64,000 nt of DNA from a bacterium (GTDB taxonomy: Bacteria; Actinomycetota; Acidimicrobiia; Spongiisociales; Spongiisociaceae), in contig JAPPHZ010000021.1 in assembly GCA_028820935.1 (NCBI GenBank), positions 6,755 through 70,754 on the forward strand, in the 5' to 3' direction. The position numbers and the translations under genes were made by a program. The notes under the pieces were generated by a model. It was given only the letters and a program-made list of their open reading frames with translations. It ran no database searches and was not told the DNA's origin. Shown one piece after another: positions 1 to 53,310 of the stretch; positions within the stretch are counted from its first letter, which is position 1, and each line of letters begins with the position of its first letter.

Positions 1-1815
1 GCTGGCGGTCTCGAGATAGGTCTCGATGTAGGGCAGACCCAAAGCCGCCTCTCGCTGCGTGGTGTGGGATGCCCGGGCGTCCGGGAAGTCCAGGAACAGC
101 ACCGCCACCCGCAGGACGCCTGTAGCCGGGATTCGACTTCGAAGCGGGAATCCTGCCGGACCCGGCGGACGGCACGAGTCCGGATCGGCCTGATCAGGGC
201 TTACGTAGTGGTACACGTCGGACGGCATCCGGACTACCGCGGGAGGCGCAGTAAGCCCGTCTTCGTGCGCCTGCTTACCCCAGCAGGTGATGGCCCCGCC
301 CGTGTGCAGCCCGCACGAATGGCGGTCGCCCAGGTCGATGGCGCTGAACTCGCCTTGCGGAGGGTCGGCCCGACCCTGCTCGTCGAAGCCCCAGCAGACC
401 ACCGAACCGTCGACGGTGATCCCGCAGGAGTGCTGCCAGCCGGCCGCTATGGCGCGGAAACGCTTGGCAGGGACATTGGCCTGTGCCGCGTGATCGGCGC
501 CCCAGCAGACGCCGACGCCGTCGGTGCGCACGCCGCACGAGTGCCAGTTGCCCGCTGCGATGGCGACGAACCGTCCGGGTGGCGGGTCGGCTTGACCATC
601 GTTGTCGGCGCCCCAGCAGGTAAGGGACCGGTCGGCGTTGCGGAGCCCGCACGTATGCCATTCCCCGGCTGCGACAGCGGCGAACTCGCCGGGTGGCGGG
701 CTTGCCTGGCCTGCGTGGTCGGCGCCCCAGCAGGTGACGCTCCGGTCGGCTCGGATGGCGCACGAGTGATCACCCCCGGCCGTGATGGCGATGAACCTCC
801 CCTCCGGCGCCCCGGTCGCCCCCCATCCGTCCCAACCCCAGCAGACGACCTCCTGGCGGCTGTCGATACCGCAGGTGTGGCTCCGGCCGGCGGTCAATGC
901 CACGAACTCCCCGTCCGGTGGTGCGGCCTGGCCCCTCGTGTTGTCCCCCCAGCAGGTCACCGTGCGATCCCTGCGTAGCCCGCAGGAATGGTCCCAACCG
1001 ACCGTGATCGCGGTGAAGTCACCCGCGTCTGGTGGTATGACGGTGCTGGCCTCCCGGGACGGGATAGCACCGGCGAAACGGAGCGCGCTGGTCAGGAAGG
1101 TGGCCATCTCTGCACGGGTGGTGGCCCGGCCGGGGCAGTAGCGGGCCGGATCGACCGCGCACCCGGAGGTGATCCCGGCCGCGGCCAAGGCGCTTATGCC
1201 CGGTAGGTGAGTGGCGCCCTGCCCGACATCGGCGAACCCCGTCGGCGGTACGGATGGCAACCGGAAGGCGCTGGTCAGGAAGGTGGCCATCTCTGCACGG
1301 GTAGTGGCCCGCCCGGGACAGAAGCGGGCCGGTTTCACCTCGCATCCCCGCGTGACTCCCAGATCTGCGAGGCGCTCCACGTGGCCCGCCCACCACGCCC
1401 CTTCGTCGACGTCGGCGAACCGTGACCGCTCGACGGGCGCAGGGTCGGCCCCATCCAATGCCCTGACCAGCCAGACCGCCACCACCCAGCGCTGGATGGG
1501 CAGATTGGGGCAGAACCGGCCTGCCGCGCACTCCGTTCCCTCGAGGACTCCCCTCGCAGCCAGGATCTCCACATTCGCCTGGTGGACACCCGCTCCGGCT
1601 ATGTCGGAGAACTGCTCAGCAGCGTGCGACGTCCCGCCCTCGCTACGTGTGCTGGAGAGAAACTCCCCGGTCTCCGGGGCCGGTGCCGGACTCGCCGGAC
1701 TCGGAAGCAAGCCCCCGACCATCAGCAGCACGGCGAACGCAAGCAGGAGGCCGCGGGTATGCTGCCGGCGCGGGTGTCCGGCTACATCATTGCGCCCGCC
1801 GACGGTACCCGTCAC
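1..1815 (-). CDS. Secreted surface protein: leader peptide, 3 SLH-like units, RCC1-type repeats and a further C-terminal region. The 3' end runs off the left edge (partial).
   Basis: The minus-strand frame is open from nt 1 up to a GTG at 1813-1815. It is absent from the ORF track because no stop lies inside the window. Hand translation gives a hydrophobic leader (RRQHTRGLLLAFAVLLMVGGLL). It also gives SLH-like units (FADVDEGAWWAGHVERLADLGVTRGC...TTRAEMATFLTSAF plus two more). About 5 RCC1-type repeats follow (e.g. GDRHSCGLHTGGAITCWG near 280-335). The exact start codon is uncertain. Confidence 0.75.
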   Translation of the reverse strand, partial: MTGTVGGRNDVAGHPRRQHTRGLLLAFAVLLMVGGLLPSPASPAPAPETGEFLSSTRSEGGTSHAAEQFSDIAGAGVHQANVEILAARGVLEGTECAAGRFCPNLPIQRWVVAVWLVRALDGADPAPVERSRFADVDEGAWWAGHVERLADLGVTRGCEVKPARFCPGRATTRAEMATFLTSAFRLPSVPPTGFADVGQGATHLPGISALAAAGITSGCAVDPARYCPGRATTRAEMATFLTSALRFAGAIPSREASTVIPPDAGDFTAITVGWDHSCGLRRDRTVTCWGDNTRGQAAPPDGEFVALTAGRSHTCGIDSRQEVVCWGWDGWGATGAPEGRFIAITAGGDHSCAIRADRSVTCWGADHAGQASPPPGEFAAVAAGEWHTCGLRNADRSLTCWGADNDGQADPPPGRFVAIAAGNWHSCGVRTDGVGVCWGADHAAQANVPAKRFRAIAAGWQHSCGITVDGSVVCWGFDEQGRADPPQGEFSAIDLGDRHSCGLHTGGAITCWGKQAHEDGLTAPPAVVRMPSDVYHYVSPDQADPDSCRPPGPAGFPLRSRIPATGVLRVAVLFLDFPDARASHTTQREAALGLPYIETYLETAS

Positions 1816-3135: not shown

Positions 3136-6100
3136 TTACGTTCGGGCAGGTTGGCGGCGAGGGCCCCGGTAGGCGAGGCCCTTGAGGCTGATCGCGAAGC
3201 CGCTCTCCAGCAGGATGGCGCCGAGCGGGTGGTCCCCGGCGGGGAGGCCGTTGATGGTCTCTACTGTCAGCCGCCGGTGCCGGATACCGATCTCGGTGAG
3301 GGCGTCGGCGGCCGCGCCGTGCAGCTCCTCCGCGTCGGTGAGGAGGGTGGCGGTCTTGCCTCCCCGCTCCAGGAACAGCAGGGGCCGGCCATCGTGGAGG
3401 ATTACGTAGGCGCCGGCCGAGCGGGAAGCCCGGCCCCGAGCTTCCTCGGGCCACGGCAGCAGGGTGCCGTACGGGTTGGCCGGATCGGCGGCGGCGAGGA
3501 TCACGGTGCCTTGGTCGCTGTCCGCGGTCCGGAGCCGGTCCACGGCCCCCGGCAGGGCGAATTGAAGGCCTCCGAGGCCCTCCACGAAGTAGCCGCGGCG
3601 GATGCGGCCCGTCTCCTCCAGATGGTTGAGGATGGGGTACAGGGTGGTCAGGCCACCGGGGATGTTCTCCGCTCGGGCGCCGGCCCTAGTCACCACTCCG
3701 TGGCGTTCCAGCAGGATCTCCGTCCAGGCGGCGCCCCATTCCGCGTCGGCCACGTCAGCCGCGCACAGGTCGGCGACCAGTGACCACCTCCCGGACGATG
3801 AAGGGGGCATGGCGGAGGGCAGCCGGCGCCGGGATCGCGCGGGGCGGGACCGGGCCACGCGGCGGATCCGTACGGCGCGCAGCGGGGCGAGGGTGTCGTT
3901 GGTGACCTCTCCCGCCCACACCAGGTCCCAGAGCGCCTCCAGGGTGTCCTCGATGCGCTCGCTGTCCACGGCCAGGTGGATGTCCCGGAAGAAGCTGGCG
4001 CCCCTCCGCGACAGGTGTGACCGGATGGCGTGGTGTAGTTCCGTGTCGGGCAGGTCATCCACGGACGGTCGATGCAGGATCGGTAGCTGCTCGCGCAGGT
4101 ATAGGGCCACCCGTCCGTCCCGAGGACCGATCCCGCCCCGGCCGACCCATACCACGTCGCCCGACGCCATGAGCTGGTCCGCCATGGTGGGCGTGTAGTC
4201 GAGCCTCGCCGCCAGAACGTCCCGTTCAAGTATCGAGGCGGGGATGGGAAGGCCCTGGAGGGTACGGATCGTCTCGACCAGGGCCGACAGGTGGTTGCGC
4301 CCGGTCCGGCCCACTCCCTGCCAGGCAGGCAGGAACCGCCCGAGGGCGCCGGCCTCGACCGCTTCGATCTCACGGCGGAGCATCGCCAGGCTACGGCGTT
4401 TCAGGCGGCGCAGCACTCCCGTGTCCACCCACTCCTGGCCGGCCTCACCCCGACGGAAGGCGCCCCGGGCCACCGTGCCGGCCTGCTCGAGCGCCACCAG
4501 GGCCACCCGGAGGGCGGCCGGGGGGAGGCCGAGGGCCGATCCGGCCTCCTCGGCCGTGAACGGCGCATGGGTGCGGGCGTAGCGGCGCACCACCTCCCCG
4601 AGCGGGTCGGGACCCGTCTCCAGGTAGGCGTCGGGAACCCCGGCCGGCGGCTGGACTCCCAATGCGTCACGCAGCCGTCCGGCGTCCTCGATGGCCGCCC
4701 ACCTCGGCGCTCCGCCCACCTGAACCCGGATGGCCCGGCGGCGCTCCTCGAGTTCGCGGAGCAGGCCGGGTGCGGAGCCGTCGGCCAGCCGGTCGGCCAC
4801 TGCCGCCCCCGTGAGCGGCCCGAGGGCCCGGAGCAGGTCATGCACGCCGTCGAGCCCCCTCACCCGGCGATCCGGGGTCAGGTACTGGAGTTCCAGCTCG
4901 ACGGCCGCGATCACGTCCTCGTCGAGCAGGTCGCGGAGCTCGCCCTCTCCAAGCAGCTCGCGGAGTAGCTCCCGGTCGAGCGTGAGGGCCGTGGCGCGCC
5001 GTTCCGACGGGGCGGCGTCCCCCTCGTACAGGTAGGAGGCCACGAACTCGAAGAGGAGCGACGAGGCGAACGGTCCGGCCGAGGTGGTGTCGACCTCCAC
5101 CACCCGCACCCGGCGGGCCGCGATGTCCCCGAGGAGTTCCCTGGCGGAGGGGAGGTCGAACACGTCCGAGAGGATCTCGCGGTAGGTCTCGAGGATGATC
5201 GGGAACGAGCCGAAGCGGGTGACGATGGCCATGAGGTCGGCGGCCCGCCGTCGCTGGAGCCACAGGGGGGTGCGACCGCCGGGCCGGCGGCGGGGCAGCA
5301 GCAATGCGCGGGCGGCCGCCTCCCGGAACCGGGCGGCGAACATGGCCGTGCCGGACAGCTCCTCGATCAGGATCGACTCCAGCTCGTCCGGGTCGAGGAG
5401 AAGGTCTTCGAGAGACGGCAGGTCGTCGGTGTCGATGAAGCGGAAGGAGATTCCGTCGTCGCTCCAGATGACGTCCACATTCCGCCCGTAGCGGTGTCGC
5501 AGGCGCTGGCCGATGGCCATTGCCCACGGCGCGTGCACCCGGCCGCCGAGGGGCGAGAGGATGGCGATCCGCCAGTCCCCGATCTCGTCGCGGAAACGCT
5601 CCACCACCACCGTCCGGTCGGTGGGAAGCACTCCGGTGGCGTCACGCTGCTCCTCGATGTATGCGACCAGGTTGCGGGCCGCCCATTCGTCCAGGTGGTA
5701 CCGGCGCCGGAGCGTGTCCACCGCCCGGTCGGTCTCCATCGCCCCGATGGTGCGGACGAAGCGGCCGATCGCCCTCCCGGTCTCGACGGGACGGCCCACC
5801 CGGTCGCCCTTCCAGAACGGCATCCGGCCCGACTCGGCGGGGGCGGGGATCACCTCCACCCGGTCGGCGGTGATGTCGCTGATCCGCCACGCCGAGGTGC
5901 CGAGGACGAATACGTCCCCGGGACGGGACTCGTAGACCATCTCCTCGTCGAGCTCGCCCACCCGGCTGCCGTCCGGAAGGTTGACCGAGTACAGCCCGCG
6001 GTCGGGGATGGTCCCGGCGTTGGTGACTGCCAGGCGCTGGGCCCCCGATCGAGGGGTCAGCGTGTGCGTGACCCGATCCCAGACCACGCGGGGGCGCAAC

Positions 6101-7545
6101 TCCCCGAACAGCTCGGACGGGTAGCGGCCGGCCAGCATGTCGAGGACCGCCTCGAAGGGTCCCCGGGCCAGATCGCGATAGGGGGCGGCCCGCCTGACCA
6201 GGGAGAGGAGGTCATCCGCCTGCCATTCGTCCATCGCTACCGCCGCCACCACCTGCTGCGCCAGCACGTCGAGCGGGCTCTGGGGAACGGCGGTGGGCTC
6301 CACCGACCGCGCCAGCATGAGGTCGGCCACCACGGTCGCCTCGAGGAGGTCCCCGCGGAACTTGGGGAAGATCTTGGCCACGCTGGTCGCCCCCACCTGA
6401 TGGCCGGCCCTACCCACCCTCTGCAAGCCGGAGGCCACGCTGGTGGGCGACTCGACGTGGATCACCAGGTCGACCGCCCCCATGTCGATGCCCAGTTCCA
6501 GTGTCGAGGTCGCCACCACGGCCGGCAGCTCACCCCGCTTGAGCAGGTCCTCGATGACGATCCGCTGCTCCCGTGACACGGAGCCGTGATGGGCGCGGGC
6601 GACCTCGTCCCCCGCCAGGTTGTTCAGCTCGGAGCAGAGGCGCTCGGACAGCCGGCGGGAGTTGGCGAACACGATGGTGGAGCGGTGGGCCCTGACCAGA
6701 TCCAGCAGGGCCGGATAGACGGAGGGCCAGATGGACCGGTAGCCGGGGTCGGCGGGCTCGGAGGCGAGCGGGTCGGGAGGTGTGGGCGCGGCCATGTCCT
6801 CGACCGGGACCACGATCTCCACCTCGAGGCCCCGCTTGCCGGGGACATCCACGATGGTGACCGGCCGCGGCGTCCAGGCGCCGCCGTCCATGGTTCCGCC
6901 TCCCATGAACTCGGCGGTGGTCGAGAGGGGTTGCTGGGTGGCGGAGAGGCCGATGCGGAGGGGACGGACGGCCGTCACCTCCTCCAGCCTCTCCAGCGAC
7001 AGGGCCAGGTGCGATCCCCGCTTGGTCCCGGCCACGGCGTGGACCTCGTCCAGGATCACCCACCGGACCGACGCCAGCATCTTGCGGGCCGCGCTGGTCA
7101 GGATCAGGAACAGGGACTCGGGGGTCGTGATGAGGATGTCCGGGGGGTGGCGCTGCATGCGCTGGCGGTCAGCGGGCGGGGTGTCGCCAGTGCGGATGGC
7201 GGCCACCACCTCGGGAAGAGGCGCCAGGCCATGACGGTCGGCGGCGTGGGCGATCCCGGTCAGGGGCGCCCGGAGGTTGCGCTCCACGTCATGGGCCAGG
7301 GCCTTCATCGGCGAGATGTAGAGGATGCGGCAGCGCCGGGACTTGACCGGCACCGGTTCGGTGAGAAGCTGGTCGAGCGTGTAGAGGAACGCGGCCAGCG
7401 TCTTGCCCGACCCGGTGGGGGCGTGGATCAGCGTGTGCTGACCGGCGGCGATGGCCGGCCATCCACTGGCCTGAGCCTCGGTGGGGCCGGGGAACGCCTC
7501 CTCGAACCAGGTGGCGGTGGCGGGCGAAAACAGGTCTCTCAACAC
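3136..7545 (-). CDS. lhr: ATP-dependent helicase Lhr (large helicase-related, DEAD/DEAH superfamily 2)
   Basis: 1469-aa ORF. Walker A is HAPTGSGKT and the DExH box is LDEVH. Motif VI is GRAGH. The long Lhr-type C-terminal extension is present. Confidence 0.95.
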   Translation of the reverse strand: MLRDLFSPATATWFEEAFPGPTEAQASGWPAIAAGQHTLIHAPTGSGKTLAAFLYTLDQLLTEPVPVKSRRCRILYISPMKALAHDVERNLRAPLTGIAHAADRHGLAPLPEVVAAIRTGDTPPADRQRMQRHPPDILITTPESLFLILTSAARKMLASVRWVILDEVHAVAGTKRGSHLALSLERLEEVTAVRPLRIGLSATQQPLSTTAEFMGGGTMDGGAWTPRPVTIVDVPGKRGLEVEIVVPVEDMAAPTPPDPLASEPADPGYRSIWPSVYPALLDLVRAHRSTIVFANSRRLSERLCSELNNLAGDEVARAHHGSVSREQRIVIEDLLKRGELPAVVATSTLELGIDMGAVDLVIHVESPTSVASGLQRVGRAGHQVGATSVAKIFPKFRGDLLEATVVADLMLARSVEPTAVPQSPLDVLAQQVVAAVAMDEWQADDLLSLVRRAAPYRDLARGPFEAVLDMLAGRYPSELFGELRPRVVWDRVTHTLTPRSGAQRLAVTNAGTIPDRGLYSVNLPDGSRVGELDEEMVYESRPGDVFVLGTSAWRISDITADRVEVIPAPAESGRMPFWKGDRVGRPVETGRAIGRFVRTIGAMETDRAVDTLRRRYHLDEWAARNLVAYIEEQRDATGVLPTDRTVVVERFRDEIGDWRIAILSPLGGRVHAPWAMAIGQRLRHRYGRNVDVIWSDDGISFRFIDTDDLPSLEDLLLDPDELESILIEELSGTAMFAARFREAAARALLLPRRRPGGRTPLWLQRRRAADLMAIVTRFGSFPIILETYREILSDVFDLPSARELLGDIAARRVRVVEVDTTSAGPFASSLLFEFVASYLYEGDAAPSERRATALTLDRELLRELLGEGELRDLLDEDVIAAVELELQYLTPDRRVRGLDGVHDLLRALGPLTGAAVADRLADGSAPGLLRELEERRRAIRVQVGGAPRWAAIEDAGRLRDALGVQPPAGVPDAYLETGPDPLGEVVRRYARTHAPFTAEEAGSALGLPPAALRVALVALEQAGTVARGAFRRGEAGQEWVDTGVLRRLKRRSLAMLRREIEAVEAGALGRFLPAWQGVGRTGRNHLSALVETIRTLQGLPIPASILERDVLAARLDYTPTMADQLMASGDVVWVGRGGIGPRDGRVALYLREQLPILHRPSVDDLPDTELHHAIRSHLSRRGASFFRDIHLAVDSERIEDTLEALWDLVWAGEVTNDTLAPLRAVRIRRVARSRPARSRRRLPSAMPPSSSGRWSLVADLCAADVADAEWGAAWTEILLERHGVVTRAGARAENIPGGLTTLYPILNHLEETGRIRRGYFVEGLGGLQFALPGAVDRLRTADSDQGTVILAAADPANPYGTLLPWPEEARGRASRSAGAYVILHDGRPLLFLERGGKTATLLTDAEELHGAAADALTEIGIRHRRLTVETINGLPAGDHPLGAILLESGFAISLKGLAYRGPRRQPART

Positions 7546-28265: not shown

Positions 28266-29014
28266 TGGGCGGTGTACCCCCCGTCGACGGTGATGACCTG
28301 GCCGGTGATCATCGCCGCGGCATCACCCGCGAGGAACACCACCGGGCCGGCGACATCGGCCGGGGTTCCCAGCCTCCCCAGAGGGGTGCGGGTCAGGAAG
28401 AACTCCTTCAGGTGCGGCTCCACCTCCCATTGCCTCCGCACGAGGGCGGTTCCTATGTGCCCGGGGGCAATCGCATTGACCCGGACGCCCGAGGGCGCCC
28501 ACTCGACCGCGAGGGTCCTGGTCATCTGGACCACCCCGCCCTTGCCGGCCTGGTACCCGACGCTGCCGGGGAAGCCCACCAGCCCACCGATCGAGGCGAT
28601 GTTGATGATCGAGCCGTGGCCCTGTTCGATCATGCGGCGGCCCACCGCCTGGCACGTGTAGAGGCTGCCCTTGACGTTGACGTCAAGGACCCGCTCCAGC
28701 AGTTCGGGTGGATAGTCGGCCGCAGCGCCGCGGCCCCCGATGCCGGCGCTGTTGACCAGCACGTCGATGGCGCCCAGGCGGGTGCTGATGTCCTCCACCG
28801 CCGCCTCGACCGCCTCCCGGTCGGAGACGTCCAGGGTGACGGCGGTACCCCCGACGGCGCTCGCCACCCGGCGGTTGGCCTCCGTTACGATGTCTGCGCC
28901 CACCACTTCGGCGCCGGCTGCGTGGAGCGCCAGGGCGATCGCCTCGCCCAGGCCGCCGGCCGATCCCGTGACCAGCGCCATCCGGCCGTCGAGACGGAAT
29001 CCGGGCAGGGTCAC
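28262..29014 (-). CDS. Short-chain dehydrogenase/reductase (FabG / acetoin-reductase-like)
   Basis: TGSAGGLG (TGxxxGxG) and YQAGKGGV (YxxxK) are present. It overlaps both neighbours by 4 nt. Confidence 0.85.
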   Translation of the reverse strand: MTLPGFRLDGRMALVTGSAGGLGEAIALALHAAGAEVVGADIVTEANRRVASAVGGTAVTLDVSDREAVEAAVEDISTRLGAIDVLVNSAGIGGRGAAADYPPELLERVLDVNVKGSLYTCQAVGRRMIEQGHGSIINIASIGGLVGFPGSVGYQAGKGGVVQMTRTLAVEWAPSGVRVNAIAPGHIGTALVRRQWEVEPHLKEFFLTRTPLGRLGTPADVAGPVVFLAGDAAAMITGQVITVDGGYTAQ

Positions 29015-29265
29015 GGGTCGATGTAGGCGAGGGTCGCCCCCACCGGGATCTCGTCATCGGAAGCGGCCGCCAGGATCTCGATGGCGCCGGCAGCCGGAGA
29101 CTCCAGCGCGACCTCGGCCTTCTCGGTCTCCACGATGACCACCTCCTGGCCCTCAACCACGGTGGCACCGGGGTCGACCAGCCATTCGATCACCACCACC
29201 TCTTCCACCACACCCATCTGCGGCACGGTCAGGGGTACTCGACGGGCAGGGTAGGGCGTGCTCAT
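29011..29265 (-). CDS. Stand-alone lipoyl/biotinyl attachment domain protein (84 aa)
   Basis: It contains VIVETEKAEVALESPAAG, a lipoyl-lysine motif. It is the first gene of the SDR-E1alpha-E1beta string. Confidence 0.75.
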   Translation of the reverse strand: MSTPYPARRVPLTVPQMGVVEEVVVIEWLVDPGATVVEGQEVVIVETEKAEVALESPAAGAIEILAAASDDEIPVGATLAYIDP

Positions 29266-29328
29266 CGGGGTGGAGACCTCCGGTGTCCTGGTTCTGGTCG
29301 GGCCGATTCTGCCAGGTTGGGGCCACCC

Positions 29329-30606
29329 TCAGGCGCCATGGCCGACCGCCTCCTCCTCAAGGACGCGAGCGCGGAACCGCCACAGCAACATCATCGTCAT
29401 GGCCGCCACGAAGTTGAGGGTCACAGCCGCCCAGGGCAGGTCATAGGTCCCGAACGTGTCCACGCCCCAACCGAATACCACCGGCCCGATGGTCAGACCC
29501 ACGGCGAACCCGAGCACGATCGACGCGGTGCTCTGTCCGGTCTGCTTGGGCTCCGACAGCATGATGGCGGCCATCATGCCGACCGACATCCACGAGCCGG
29601 TGCCCATCCCCACCAGCACCGCCCCCACCCAGATCAGGAAGGGCAGGGTATAGCCGGCCACCCAGGTGGCGACCAAGGCACCCGCGGACAGGGCGCCGAT
29701 CGCCAGCAGCGGGACCGAGGGATGTCCGGCTCGCTCTGCGATCCTTCCCCATAGCACCCGCCACAACGCGCCGGACGCGCCCGATACGGCGATGACCGTA
29801 CCCGCCAGGGCCACACCCATGCCGAGGTTCTCCTGGGCGTAGAGCGGAACGAAGGCCGAGTAGGTGCCCACGCCGATCCCCATGGTGACTCCGTAGGCCG
29901 AGAGCCACCGAACCGCACCGGGGAGGCGCACGCGCCGTTCCCCGGCGCTGCGCGCCGGAGTCCAGGCGGCGGGTCCGGCGGGCACGATGGCGAGGGTGAA
30001 TGCGATGCCCACCAGCGCCACCAGAGAGGCGAGTACCAGCGCCATCCGCCATCCGAGGCGGGCCGCAGTCACCGGCAGGGCCAGGCCGGTGGCCAGGATC
30101 CCGATCTGCACCCCGGACTGCTTGATTCCGGTTATCCACCCGCGGGACCCGGCAGGAACGTTCTCGACGATGATGTTGTTGGTCGCCGAGTTGGCCCCGG
30201 CGGCCGGGATTCCGGCTATCGCAGCGAACATCATCAGGGACCAGAAACCCCAGGAGAAAGCCATCGTCAGCAGCCCCAGGAACACGAACAGCAGCATCAG
30301 GATCTGGGTGTAGCGGCCGCTCAGGCGGTCGGCCAGCACCCCGAGCGGGATGCTGGTGATCATGATCGCGAAGGCGTGGAAGGTGGCGACCGCTCCGATC
30401 TCGGTCCGGGTCAGGCCCAGGTCATCGATGAAGAAACGGGACAGTATCCCGATGATCGGCCCGGGCGTCATCGATAGGGCCATCGCACCGGCGAGTACGG
30501 CCGAGAGCCCCACGAGGCCAACCCTCCGGGGTGCTTCGGGGCTCGGGCCGAGACGGTGGTCGATGTCGGAGTGCTCCCTCGGTGGCTGCCGCAGGAGGGT
30601 ACTCAC
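29329..30606 (-). CDS. MFS transporter
   Basis: 425 aa with ~12 hydrophobic spans and the D-R-x-G-R-like loop LADRLSGRY. Confidence 0.8.
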   Translation of the reverse strand: MSTLLRQPPREHSDIDHRLGPSPEAPRRVGLVGLSAVLAGAMALSMTPGPIIGILSRFFIDDLGLTRTEIGAVATFHAFAIMITSIPLGVLADRLSGRYTQILMLLFVFLGLLTMAFSWGFWSLMMFAAIAGIPAAGANSATNNIIVENVPAGSRGWITGIKQSGVQIGILATGLALPVTAARLGWRMALVLASLVALVGIAFTLAIVPAGPAAWTPARSAGERRVRLPGAVRWLSAYGVTMGIGVGTYSAFVPLYAQENLGMGVALAGTVIAVSGASGALWRVLWGRIAERAGHPSVPLLAIGALSAGALVATWVAGYTLPFLIWVGAVLVGMGTGSWMSVGMMAAIMLSEPKQTGQSTASIVLGFAVGLTIGPVVFGWGVDTFGTYDLPWAAVTLNFVAAMTMMLLWRFRARVLEEEAVGHGA

Positions 30607-44973: not shown

Positions 44974-47235
<2,262 letters not shown>

Positions 47236-47402: not shown

Positions 47403-47951
47403 ATGGCGCGTATCGAGGTCATTCCCGACGATTCCTGGGATGGTGAGCTCGGCGATCTCTATCCACGGGTCGTCGATCCCGCATACGGGCGGGTCGACAA
47501 CATCATGGCCGTGCACTCGCTCAACCCCCGCGGCATGGCTGCGCACCTGCGCCTCTACGAGTCGGCGATGGCCGGCACCGCGACCCTCCGCAAGGTCGAG
47601 CGGGAGCTCATCGCCCTGGTGGTGAGCCTCGAGAACGACTGCCACTACTGAGTCGTCCACCACCGGCGCGGTCTGCGCCGCCTGATCAAGGACGATGAGC
47701 TGGTCGAGGCGATCGAACAGGACTGGACAGCCGCCGACCTGTCGCCCAAGCGGCGGTCGATGCTGAGGTTCGCCGTCAAGCTGACCACCACGCCCGCCGC
47801 AATGGACGGAGCGGACGTAGAGGCCCTGCGATCGGCCGGTTTCTCCGATCGTGACATCCTCGACATAGTCGAGGTGGTCGGCTACTACGCCTACGCCAAC
47901 CGGGTCGCCGACGGTCTCGGCATCGAGACCGAATCCTGGATCCCCGACTGA
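47403..47951 (+). CDS. AhpD/carboxymuconolactone-decarboxylase-family peroxidase-related protein with an in-frame UGA (candidate selenocysteine) at 47649-47651
   Basis: ORFs 47403..47651 and 47760..47951 share one frame, and the frame is open from 47652. Read-through gives ...ELIALVVSLENDCHY[U]VVHHRRGLRRLIKDDELV.... This is the CMD core N.C.YC..H with the second Cys replaced by UGA. Confidence 0.7.
47652..47696 (+). promoter_or_regulatory. Candidate bacterial SECIS stem-loop
   Basis: The apical stem is CGGCGC/GCGCCG (47664-69 / 47675-80) with loop GGUCU. The loop begins 18 nt after UGA. The outer helix is GUCGUCC / GGACGAU (47652-58 / 47690-96). Confidence 0.55.
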
Positions 47952-51247: not shown

Positions 51248-52351
51248 GTGACAGCAGCCGAGCGTTCCGCCTCCCTCAGCCGGCGCCGGCCGGCCCTGGT
51301 GGGGTTGGTCGCGCTCGCGCTGGTGGTCGCCGCGACTTCTCCGGCGCCGGCCGCCACCGGCGCCGTCGGAGGCTTCACCGACGTGCCGGAGGGCAACGTG
51401 CACGAGCCAGCCATCAACGCCCTCGCGGAGATGGGCCTGTTCGAGGACACCCTTTGCGAGGACGGCCTCTTCTGTCCCGGCGACCCGATGAAGCGGTGGG
51501 TGATGGCCGTCTGGCTGATCCGGGCGCTCGGTGGCGAGGTCACCACGACCGGGTCCTCCCGCTTCGCGGACGTCGACGCCGCCTCGTGGTGGTCCCCCTA
51601 CGTGGAGGAACTCGCCGACCGGGAGATCACCAAGGGATGCAGAACTGAACCGCTCCGCTATTGCCCGGACGGGACCGTAACCCGGGCCGAGATGGCCAGC
51701 TTCCTGGTCCGCGCCTTCGATCTCGAACCCGCCGAGTCGTCGGCCGGGTTCACCGACGTGGACGTGGGCAGCATGCACGGAGCCGACATCGACGCCCTGT
51801 TCGCGGCCGGCGTCACCGCCGGCTGCGCGGACGATCCGCTCCGCTACTGCCCCGGCCAGTCCGTCAAACGGGGCGAGATGGCCACCTTCCTGCACCGGGC
51901 ATTGCTGAAACAGCAAGAGGAGGCCGGGATCAGCGACGATGTCCCAGATGTCAGCCTGACCGACGTTTCCACCGGCGACACCGTGGAGCTCCGGTCGCTG
52001 TTCACCGGCGACAAGGCGGTCATGTTCTGGTTCTGGGCCGAGTGGTGACCCACTTGCCGGGGGCACGCCCCCGAGGTCGAGCGGTTCGCTCGAGAGAATG
52101 CCGACAAGGTCAACGTGGTGGGCATCAACCCGCGGACATGGAACAATCTGGGCGAGGCTAGGAGCTTCGTGAGCACGTACCGGCTCACCTTCACCAACCT
52201 CTGGGACAGCTCGGATACCGTCCGGAGGCACTACGGCAGCCCCTACACGTCCAGGGCGCTCCTGGTCGACAAGCACGGCAACCGGGTGGAGCAGGCTCCC
52301 AGCCTCTTCTCCACCAGCAGGTTCCAGAGGCTGGTGGACGGCCTGGACTAG
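51248..52351 (+). CDS. Surface-anchored (3x SLH) TlpA/ResA-type thioredoxin-fold protein with an in-frame UGA (candidate selenocysteine) at 52046-52048
   Basis: A GTG start follows a GGGGAGAA SD. The leader is SLSRRRPALVGLVALALVVAATSPAPAA and three SLH units follow. ORFs 51248..52048 and 52115..52351 share one frame. Read-through gives ...AVMFWFWAEW[U]PTCRGHAPEVERF..., which is WCxxC with the first Cys replaced by UGA. Confidence 0.7.
52058..52073 (+). promoter_or_regulatory. Hairpin 9 nt downstream of the UGA (candidate SECIS core)
   Basis: CGGGGG-cacg-CCCCCG. The loop does not match the E. coli GGUC type. Confidence 0.35.
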
Positions 52352-52488: not shown

Positions 52489-53232
52489 TCACCTGTTTCT
52501 TATGTATATCTGCTTGTGCCCACCGAGTATCCGCTCTTCAGTCCTGAACTTGTCGGGCCGGGACTTGATGAGAGGGGACAACCGCGAGTGCCCGTAACTG
52601 CGGTAGTCGAACGCGGGGTCCAGCTTCCGTATCTGGCTCCCGACCGCCCCGATGTTGGCCCAGCCGTCCTCGTCAAGAACAGCCTCTATGGCTCGCCTAG
52701 CGGTCACGATCCATTTCGTGGGACCCGGAGATTTGTCCTGGTTGGTGGCGGGCTGCTCGGGCGCCTTCAGGTTCTCGGTGTAGACGAAGATCTCGCATGC
52801 GTTGACCAGAGAGTTCGGCGTCTGCCTCTGGCCTATACCCATGACGAACAGGCCCTGTTCGCGGATTCTCGTGGCCAGGCGGGTGTAGTCGCTGTCGCTG
52901 GAGACTATGCAGAAGCCGTCAACGGATCCGGCGTGCAGCAGGTCCATCGCATCGATGATCAAGGCACTGTCCGTAGCGTTCTTACCCACCGTGTAACGGA
53001 ACTGCTGTATCGGCTGGATGGCAAAGGTCTGCAGACCCTTCTTCCACGAGGACATTTGAGGCAGCGTCCAGTCCCCGTAGATGCGCCGGGTCGTCACGAT
53101 CCCGTACTTGGCGACCTCGGCCAGGATGTCCTCTATGAGAGAGGGCTGCGCATTGTCGCCGTCGATGAGCAGTGCTATCTGGCCCGAGCGTGATGCACGC
53201 CTTGCCATGTACTGAGCATCTTCCTGGGTCAC
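52489..53232 (-). CDS. NYN (LabA-like) nuclease domain + OST-HTH/LOTUS domain protein
   Basis: It contains ALLIDGDN...GKNATDSALIIDAMDL...FCIVSSDSDYTRLATRIRE (NYN). The C-terminus is ...DGWANIGAVGSQIRKLDPAFDYRSYG (OST-HTH). GC is clearly lower than in the flanks. Confidence 0.8.
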   Translation of the reverse strand: MTQEDAQYMARRASRSGQIALLIDGDNAQPSLIEDILAEVAKYGIVTTRRIYGDWTLPQMSSWKKGLQTFAIQPIQQFRYTVGKNATDSALIIDAMDLLHAGSVDGFCIVSSDSDYTRLATRIREQGLFVMGIGQRQTPNSLVNACEIFVYTENLKAPEQPATNQDKSPGPTKWIVTARRAIEAVLDEDGWANIGAVGSQIRKLDPAFDYRSYGHSRLSPLIKSRPDKFRTEERILGGHKQIYIRNR

Positions 53233-53310
53233 CTTGGTTGATTCTCCTTACTGAGGGAGTTCAGCCTAGATATCGCTGCCGCTAGGCGCCGGCACGTCCC
53301 TACTCGGGCC

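Follow-up and report, generated by a model that had tools for sequence, protein, structure and literature searches.

A predicted surface-anchored selenoprotein family with a thioredoxin fold in sponge-associated Acidimicrobiia

Selenoproteins with a UxxC motif in a TlpA-like thioredoxin fold, as well as periplasmic selenoproteins, are already known. [quoted passage not shown] Here we describe a gene of this general kind in 64,000 nucleotides of DNA (hereafter the window) from a bacterium of the family Spongiisociaceae (Acidimicrobiia; contig JAPPHZ010000021.1 of assembly GCA_028820935.1, positions 6,755 to 70,754). We consider it highly probable that positions 51248..52351 of the window constitute a single gene, encoding an exported, cell-wall-anchored thiol-disulfide oxidoreductase with selenocysteine (Sec, U) as its nucleophile at UGA 52046; what doubt is left concerns the Sec machinery of this genome. 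The recoding signature, the constraint on the RNA, the domain architecture and the distribution of the family are the observations that carry this reading.

The Sargasso Sea family belongs to the same superfamily, has the same UxxC motif and was predicted by the same logic of Sec/Cys pairs and Sec insertion sequence (SECIS) elements; no S-layer homology (SLH) anchor and no link to Acidimicrobiia or sponges turned up in term searches of these papers. With that family listed since 2005, an earlier, sequence-only reading of the locus was right to call UxxC thioredoxin-fold selenoproteins established. The UGC-containing TlpA selenoproteins (NCBIfam NF041054) likewise have a fold of the TlpA/ResA-like kind in which Sec follows a WAxx motif; however, their motif is U-G-C and that of the window gene U-P-T-C, and in a comparison with NF041054 (ResA-like WAxxUGC selenoproteins) the gene scored 24 bits against a cut-off of 300, so that it is no member. 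Closer are DsbE (Mpt53, Rv2878c; 1LU4) and DsbF (Rv1677; 3IOS) of Mycobacterium tuberculosis, which are alike in fold, actinobacterial and extracytoplasmic, and whose active-site stretch is nearly the same (WFWAPWCPTCQGEAP in the mycobacterial proteins, WFWAEW[U]PTCRGHAP in the window gene), but which have Cys instead of Sec and no SLH units. Both have been characterized as oxidases, and DsbF is a lipoprotein, as are the type-B paralogues described below. With the SLH proteins that monoderm bacteria carry on their cell walls (S-layer proteins as well as SLH-anchored exoenzymes) the predicted protein shares three tandem SLH units behind a putative signal peptide, and the TRAE motif, while it differs in its cargo, a small Sec redox domain, and in having a Cys pair in each SLH unit.

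Translation confirmed the claim of the sequence-only reading that the open reading frames (ORFs) 51248..52048 and 52115..52351 lie in one frame with a TGA as the sole interruption (Table 1). This TGA (52046-52048) is in frame both with GTG 51248 and with the downstream ORF, and read-through across it yields ...GDKAVMFWFWAEW*PTCRGHAPEVERFARENADKVNVVGIN... (context ...FWFWAEW*PTCRGHAPEVERFAR..., the asterisk marking the UGA), the frame remaining open to the TAG at 52349-52351. Residues 268-367, 3' of U267, include SFVSTYR and LTFTNLWDSSDTVR. The G+C content of third codon positions (GC3) in this frame is 0.86 before the TGA and 0.91 after it. Three assemblies carry an identical sequence, TGA included, namely ENA scaffold_296, NCBI JAPPLL010000046.1 (GCA_028819445.1) and Logan SRR10996926. 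All are from sponge metagenomes, possibly of the same or sister samples, and the NCBI contig carries single nucleotide polymorphisms elsewhere relative to the others, hence it is no mere copy. As had been foreseen, gene callers report a truncated 266-aa SLH protein in all three, to which ENA and Logan add an orphan ORF of 78 aa.

By scanning reference genomes we found 77 related loci, amounting to about 1.4 Mb in total. All are labeled either as Acidimicrobiia (Ca. Spongiisocius, Spongiisociaceae and relatives) or merely as 'bacterium', and the bin names of many match published series of metagenome-assembled genomes (MAGs) from sponge microbiomes. The samples of the window are labeled ROBB21-1, and bins behind other loci are labeled RHO, APA and SB. 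About 26 of the 77 match residues 1-367 in full. Of 37 homologous sites in sponge-associated Acidimicrobiia MAGs, 36 have TGA as the catalytic codon and one (locus L017) has TGC, and the frame beyond it is open for at least 97 codons at every site (97-113 codons in all except L064, where it runs for 193 codons to a non-homologous end; nearly all sites share a homologous C-terminus). The true stops of the 37 genes are TGA in 16, TAG in 14 and TAA in seven. A further TGC form, outside these 37 sites, is P0011 (L086/L087), a full-length protein with WFWSPYCPTC. More than 20 further MAGs, some of them complete assemblies at chromosome level, have this TGA as well. Closed chromosomes carrying the family include OZ241858.1, OZ253564.1, OZ219922.1, OZ242000.1, OZ246890.1, OY760694.1, OZ241390.1 and OZ241331.1. 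The argument that a stop is unlikely to fall on this one codon by chance thereby gained considerable substance.

Selection acts on the protein on both sides of the UGA. Among 23 orthologues the median ratio of non-synonymous to synonymous substitution rates (dN/dS, Nei-Gojobori) is 0.31 upstream (240 codons) and 0.34 downstream, at a dS of about 1.0-1.2; the decay of the downstream codons in relatives that was named beforehand as counter-evidence is thus excluded. The resolving Cys three codons on is invariant, and is encoded by TGC at 28 and by TGT at nine of the 37 sites. Since both Cys codons are used for an invariant residue, this stretch is selected as protein and hence translated. In protein databases the division is visible from the other side: a search returned about 50 relatives of 60-95% identity, each covering exactly 72% of the query and stopping at ...FWFWAEW, and a search with the redox domain alone returned orphan 78-aa ORFs only and no Cys relatives.

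The family comprises at least three subtypes. Type A, to which the window gene belongs, has WAEW-U-PTC together with SLH units, and type C has WSPY-U/C-PTC, also with SLH; the SLH-bearing paralogues score 48-49 bits with the Pfam SLH model. In type B, mostly WSPF/L-U-ETC, a lipobox and a long Thr/Pro-rich linker replace the SLH units. Type-B genes (L006:9550, L008:8341, L009:8338, L010:10118, L011:10118, L012:10115, L013:10082, L014:10115, L015:8940, L018:10118 and L020:10118) are usually found upstream of the type-A gene, at a distance of about 1.2-2.5 kb. No type-B copy is present in the region of the window genome. Up to three Sec paralogues stand in tandem in OZ253564.1 (L008; at 8341, 9488 and 10805), the middle one with WFLSPF-U-PKC, and the chromosome OY760694.1 (L014, L017) has type A and type B with Sec alongside a type-C Cys form. 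At the catalytic codon one A-to-C change is all that separates the Cys forms L017 and P0011 from their Sec relatives, and these forms retain both of the hairpins described below, which argues for Sec as the default state, with Cys recently derived from it.

The domain make-up was examined with Cys put at codon 267. At residues 228-345, i.e. across codon 267, Pfam then recognizes both AhpC-TSA, with 55.5 bits for a cut-off of 26, and Redoxin, with 53.3 bits for one of 26.6, as well as an SLH domain (41.3 bits, cut-off 20.8) at residues 105-130, which is unit 2 and the only unit above threshold. By eye there are three SLH repeats, as in the sequence-only reading, unit 2 having a TRAE motif and unit 3 KRGE. 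The N-terminus shows RRR, followed by a hydrophobic core and a cleavage region rich in Ala, is conserved in the homologue alignment and is probably an export signal peptide, the leader of the sequence-only reading. Each SLH unit has an invariant Cys pair among the homologues (C70/C76, C131/C139 and C193/C201), presumably disulfide-bonded outside the cell. The pattern, GCxxxPxxYCP, is an unusual SLH variant that is common in other SLH proteins of these MAGs (L025-L077).

The best matches in the PDB (phmmer) are M. tuberculosis Mpt53/DsbE 1LU4 (E 1.8e-13) and DsbF 3IOS (E 1.3e-12), with alignments running through WFWxxWCPxC...AP. In the cis-Pro loop, ...hyGSPYts of the query aligns to ...ryNVPWqp of 1LU4, the Pro being kept. 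The FWAxWCxxC motif with UGA at the nucleophilic Cys was therefore correctly recognized: in an alignment to the Cys homologues the catalytic Cys of P0011, L017, Mpt53 and DsbF falls on the UGA. Of the original TlpA-type label the thioredoxin fold stands, while the closest characterized relatives are DsbE/Mpt53 and DsbF rather than rhizobial TlpA. An AlphaFold2 model of the Cys homologue P0011, made with no alignment, reached a pLDDT confidence score of 36 and is unusable. Taken together, domains and motifs support an SLH-anchored DsbE/TlpA-type thioredoxin-fold oxidoreductase with a predicted extracytoplasmic location, for which the lipoboxes of the type-B paralogues speak as well. No CcdA/DsbD-like redox partner was found among the conserved neighbors, synteny being limited to close relatives.

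Two hairpins follow the UGA. The first, a GC hairpin to which the sequence-only reading had drawn attention, does exist (6 bp, loop CACG), but it is probably not the SECIS, as it fits the published bSECIS model at none of the 37 sites. That model asks for a loop of 3-9 nt on a stem of 4-16 bp, a G in the first two loop positions, a spacing of 16-37 nt and a minimum free energy of -7.5 or lower. Hairpin 2 passes all four criteria at 35 of the 37 sites, the remaining two being short on energy by 0.1 kcal/mol, so the SECIS expected after the UGA is recovered by this model. Its family form has the stem UCGAGC/GCUCG(A/G) and the loop (A/G)GUU(C/U), encodes V-E-R/Q-F-A-R and begins its loop 34-35 nt after the UGA (35 nt in the window copy, at -10.0 kcal/mol). 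In common with the bSECIS model and with canonical elements such as those of E. coli fdhF and Moorella fdhA, hairpin 2 has a stem of 6-7 bp, a loop of 3-5 nt starting with (A/G)GU and a spacing within 16-37 nt; it departs from canonical SECIS elements in the distance of its loop from the UGA and in the second, variable hairpin in the spacer.

The two hairpins evolve differently. Hairpin 1 occurs in most homologues, its register slipping by one base and its loop unconserved, with 68.9% of alignment cells paired and double changes at five pairs, as against 99.1% paired cells and an invariant sequence for hairpin 2 over the 37 sites. Codons +10 to +15, which make up hairpin 2, are synonymously frozen: GTC in 22 of 22, GAG in 37 of 37, CAG in 30 of 30, GCT in 37 of 37 and CGA/CGG in 35 of 37 cases, even though GCT and CGA are rare in the family (10% of Ala and 12% of Arg codons, respectively). 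By comparison, all four codons are in use for Gly and Val residues that lie a few codons beyond hairpin 2 and are just as conserved. The constraint on the sequence of hairpin 2 exceeds what the protein requires. Native folds were also compared with synonymous recodings drawn from family codon usage, as dinucleotide shuffles are a poor null in GC-rich coding DNA. At +30..+50 (hairpin 2) the mean z was -3.41, with p<=0.05 in 36 of the 37 genes, and at +9..+29 (hairpin 1) it was -1.73, compared to values from -0.5 to +0.27 in seven control windows. Folding of the whole segment is unremarkable (z of -0.7 and -1.4). The SelB-binding element is thus likely hairpin 2 rather than hairpin 1, which is possibly a spacer or accessory stem.

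A second selenoprotein gene was found in the window by a GC3-filtered screen for in-frame TGAs. It lies directly 3' of katG (44974-47235) and 4.4 kb from the SLH gene, and encodes an AhpD-like 'peroxidase-related enzyme' (TIGR01926; 146 bits, cut-off 81.8) with the motif C-H-Y-U (CxxU). According to the Sargasso Sea study of 2005 and the review PMC13188914, few selenoprotein families of prokaryotes are better known than the AhpD-like CxxU proteins. The gene recurs with its TGA kept in four related loci (L001, L003, L004 and L007). Its SECIS loop starts 18 nt after the UGA, the stem-loop sequence being identical in the orthologues, and both its loop, GGUCU, and its position match those in E. 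coli fdhF and Moorella fdhA. In the NCBI record TGA 47649 is retained, and the record gives a single 182-aa product across it, which indicates that the annotator read it through as Sec, whereas the ENA callers split it into 82 and 63 aa; the same NCBI annotator leaves the SLH gene truncated. A selenoprotein with a canonical SECIS in the window points to a working SelB system in the organism.

Table 1. Positions in the window of the two predicted selenoprotein genes and their elements
Feature	Position	Strand	Basis or details
Predicted SLH redox selenoprotein gene, complete coding sequence	51248..52351	+	GTG start, TAG stop 52349-52351, 367 codons including Sec267
Putative N-terminal export signal, ...SLSRRRPALVGLVALALVVAATSPAPAATG	51248..51358	+	Arg-rich n-region, hydrophobic core, Ala-rich cleavage region; read off the translation
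Three tandem SLH units (residues 43-104, 105-166, 167-222)	51374..51913	+	Pfam (unit 2), repeats by eye
Thioredoxin-fold redox domain (Redoxin/AhpC-TSA; DsbE/DsbF/ResA-like), active site W-U267-P-T-C270	51929..52282	+	Pfam, PDB phmmer
In-frame UGA, predicted Sec codon at the nucleophilic Cys position	52046..52048	+	TGA at 36/37 sites, Cys in P0011
TGC codon of the resolving Cys270 (UxxC)	52055..52057	+	Cys at 37/37 sites
Hairpin 1, CGGGGG-CACG-CCCCCG, 6 bp, loop CACG	52058-52073	+	Folding
Hairpin 2, probably the core of the SECIS, with loop (G)GUU(C) on stem UCGAGC(G)/(C)GCUCGA	52077-52093	+	Folding, synonymous freezing, bSECIS model
AhpD-like 'peroxidase-related enzyme' TIGR01926, motif C-H-Y-U (CxxU)	47403..47951	+	In-frame TGA screen
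TGA of the AhpD-like gene	47649-47651	+	Context ...SLENDCHY[U]VVHH...
SECIS of the AhpD-like gene, stem CGGCGC/GCGCCG (6 bp), loop GGUCU	47664-47680	+	Folding

Several results weigh against Sec insertion in the SLH gene and have to be set beside this evidence. Searches by ARAGORN and by tblastn with E. coli K-12 SelA, SelB and SelD covered the window, the 77 loci and additional scaffold flanks and turned up neither tRNA-Sec nor any of selA, selB and selD; the sole SelB-like match, at the edge of L021, is EF-Tu. Among the sponge-symbiont bins of Slaby et al., in which SelA and SelB COGs are enriched, the Acidimicrobiia bin134 (68.7% GC, 90% complete) has SelD without SelA or SelB, while the Acidimicrobiia bin76 has SelA, SelB and SelD. 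The GC content of the window (68.5%) is close to that of bin134, a likeness to the Slaby bins that is circumstantial only. Like bin76, Actinomarina, of the same class, speaks for Sec decoding in the lineage: all of its 84 complete genomes have selC, selA, selD and a divergent selB, according to a preprint. Rfam scans gave no match to a SECIS family, whether the gathering score was applied or, around the site, a limit of E<=10, leaving the SECIS expectation supported by the bSECIS model and unsupported by covariance; by the same preprint, Rfam SECIS models are expected to miss bacterial SECIS elements. Nor does covariation (RNAalifold and pair counting) lend support to hairpin 2, since it never varies, and its loop is at the far end of the allowed spacing, at 34-35 nt compared to 18 nt in the AhpD-like gene. 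Lastly, hairpin 2 persists in the Cys forms, where a SECIS might have been expected to decay; this comparison is uninformative, however, because both look like very recent TGA-to-TGC conversions.

The explanation that automatic annotation implies is a nonsense-mutated pseudogene or a truly truncated SLH protein, the 3' part being a decaying remnant or a small ORF starting at GTG 52115, and dozens of such halves, called as 266 and 78 aa, fill the databases. It is nonetheless extremely improbable: the same TGA stands at 36 of 37 sites over lineages with dS above 1, neither a frameshift nor an extra stop occurs within the next 97 or more codons, downstream dN/dS equals that upstream, and the 22 codons between the TGA and GTG 52115, including the Cys in its two codons, are conserved as protein. 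Moreover, a thioredoxin fold that stopped short of its active-site helix would not function. A sequencing or assembly error hiding a TGC or TGT, suggested by nothing beyond its general possibility and by the chance that the three agreeing assemblies share reads, is of negligible probability given the SNPs elsewhere in the NCBI contig and the recurrence of the TGA in chromosome-level assemblies of other genomes. The conservation of the TGA, the open frame, the selection on it and the identity across assemblies thus exclude, for practical purposes, that the gene is a pseudogene, that the TGA is an assembly error or that the downstream part is a gene of its own.

More serious, yet still improbable, is that the UGA is read without Sec, by a near-cognate tRNA (Cys or Trp) or by context-dependent sense reading, with the hairpins slowing termination. 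The missing Sec machinery in the DNA searched would fit this, as would the viability of the Cys forms and the base after the UGA, which is C in 27 and G in ten of the 37 family genes; UGA-C is a weak termination context. However, if Cys were inserted, TGC or TGT could freely replace TGA, which has happened at a single one of the 37 sites and apparently recently, and Trp or Gly as the nucleophile would inactivate the enzyme. TGA is also the main ordinary stop in the window, ending 22 of 44 likely genes. Together with the TGA at 29329, which was tried as a Sec codon and rejected as a true stop between a major facilitator superfamily (MFS) transporter ORF and a biotin/lipoyl-carrier ORF (29011-30606, minus strand), this indicates that UGA is not reassigned. 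These two ordinary genes share a frame and thereby mimic the signature of a selenoprotein; similarly, in-frame TGA matches in L031 and L040 proved to be junctions of ATP-grasp and alpha-E genes. What further distinguishes the Sec explanation is that hairpin 2 fits a SelB-type bSECIS with a loop starting (A/G)GU, and that the textbook SECIS of the AhpD-like neighbor implies a SelB system.

If the UGA encodes Sec, a ribosome arriving at 52046 would meet hairpin 2 as the element that recruits SelB with Sec-tRNA(Sec), its loop (A/G)GUU(C/U) sharing the first three bases with the GGUCU of the AhpD-like SECIS. The variable hairpin 1 would fill the extra 16 nt between the UGA and hairpin 2. The SECIS hairpin of the AhpD-like gene stands behind 12 single-stranded nt, and in the SLH gene 9 and 3 nt flank the 16-nt hairpin 1; should hairpin 1 stay folded, both genes would have 12 single-stranded nt before the SelB hairpin, an idea put forward tentatively. 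From what is known of the domains, the signal peptide would export the protein, the three SLH units would hold it non-covalently on the secondary cell-wall polymer, and the C-terminal DsbE/DsbF-like domain may exchange thiols and disulfides on envelope or secreted proteins, by way of a selenenylsulfide of U267 with the substrate or with C270. With low confidence, we lean towards an oxidation-resistant surface reductase or isomerase rather than a pure oxidase. As a rule, UxxC proteins with Sec at the N-terminal position are better reductants and withstand irreversible over-oxidation.

A scan for promoters and terminators found none. Just 3' of the SLH selenoprotein gene lies a convergent gene for an NYN-domain and OST-HTH/LOTUS protein (52489-53247, minus strand), followed by a Fic/DUF4172 gene and a PGA_cap gene (from the gene table of L080). 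Another SLH protein, with RCC1-type repeats, apparently begins inside the left edge of the window and runs off it (about 1-1722, minus strand, a position obtained by offset from L085 10734-13487, where it has 917 aa). It adjoins an RDD-domain gene and an Lhr-type helicase (3136-7545, minus strand).

What looks new here is the SLH anchor architecture, the subfamily with its lineage and ecology, and an unusually distant SECIS with a spacer hairpin. To our knowledge, no other selenoprotein is fused to SLH cell-wall anchors, a statement resting on a limited literature check: a search for 'S-layer homology' with 'selenoprotein' gave only incidental mentions, in line with the sequence-only reading, which knew of none, and a search for 'Spongiisocius' gave nothing. 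Together with the lipoprotein paralogues, the SLH fusion suggests that these sponge symbionts put selenium-based redox catalysis on their cell surface, in keeping with the enrichment of Sec machinery that has been reported for symbionts of sponges. The current understanding of selenoproteins is not overturned, and specialists would not be greatly surprised. In practical terms, none of the dozens of inspected database entries of the family reads through the TGA, the few full-length ones being Cys forms, and recognizing the family would correct 36 recoded sites and add a model to selenoprotein annotation sets. A genome with both a canonical SECIS at 18 nt and a distant one at 34-35 nt behind an intervening hairpin also offers a natural test of how strictly SelB depends on spacing.

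Rather unlikely, and put forward tentatively, is the wider scheme of a surface selenoenzyme system specific to sponge-symbiont Acidimicrobiia, in which SLH and lipoprotein paralogues use Sec by default and rely on a two-hairpin class of SECIS, a spacer hairpin at the ribosome entrance offsetting the SelB hairpin 34-35 nt downstream, and whose targets might be disulfides of the envelope or exposed by the host, in the oxidizing sponge mesohyl.

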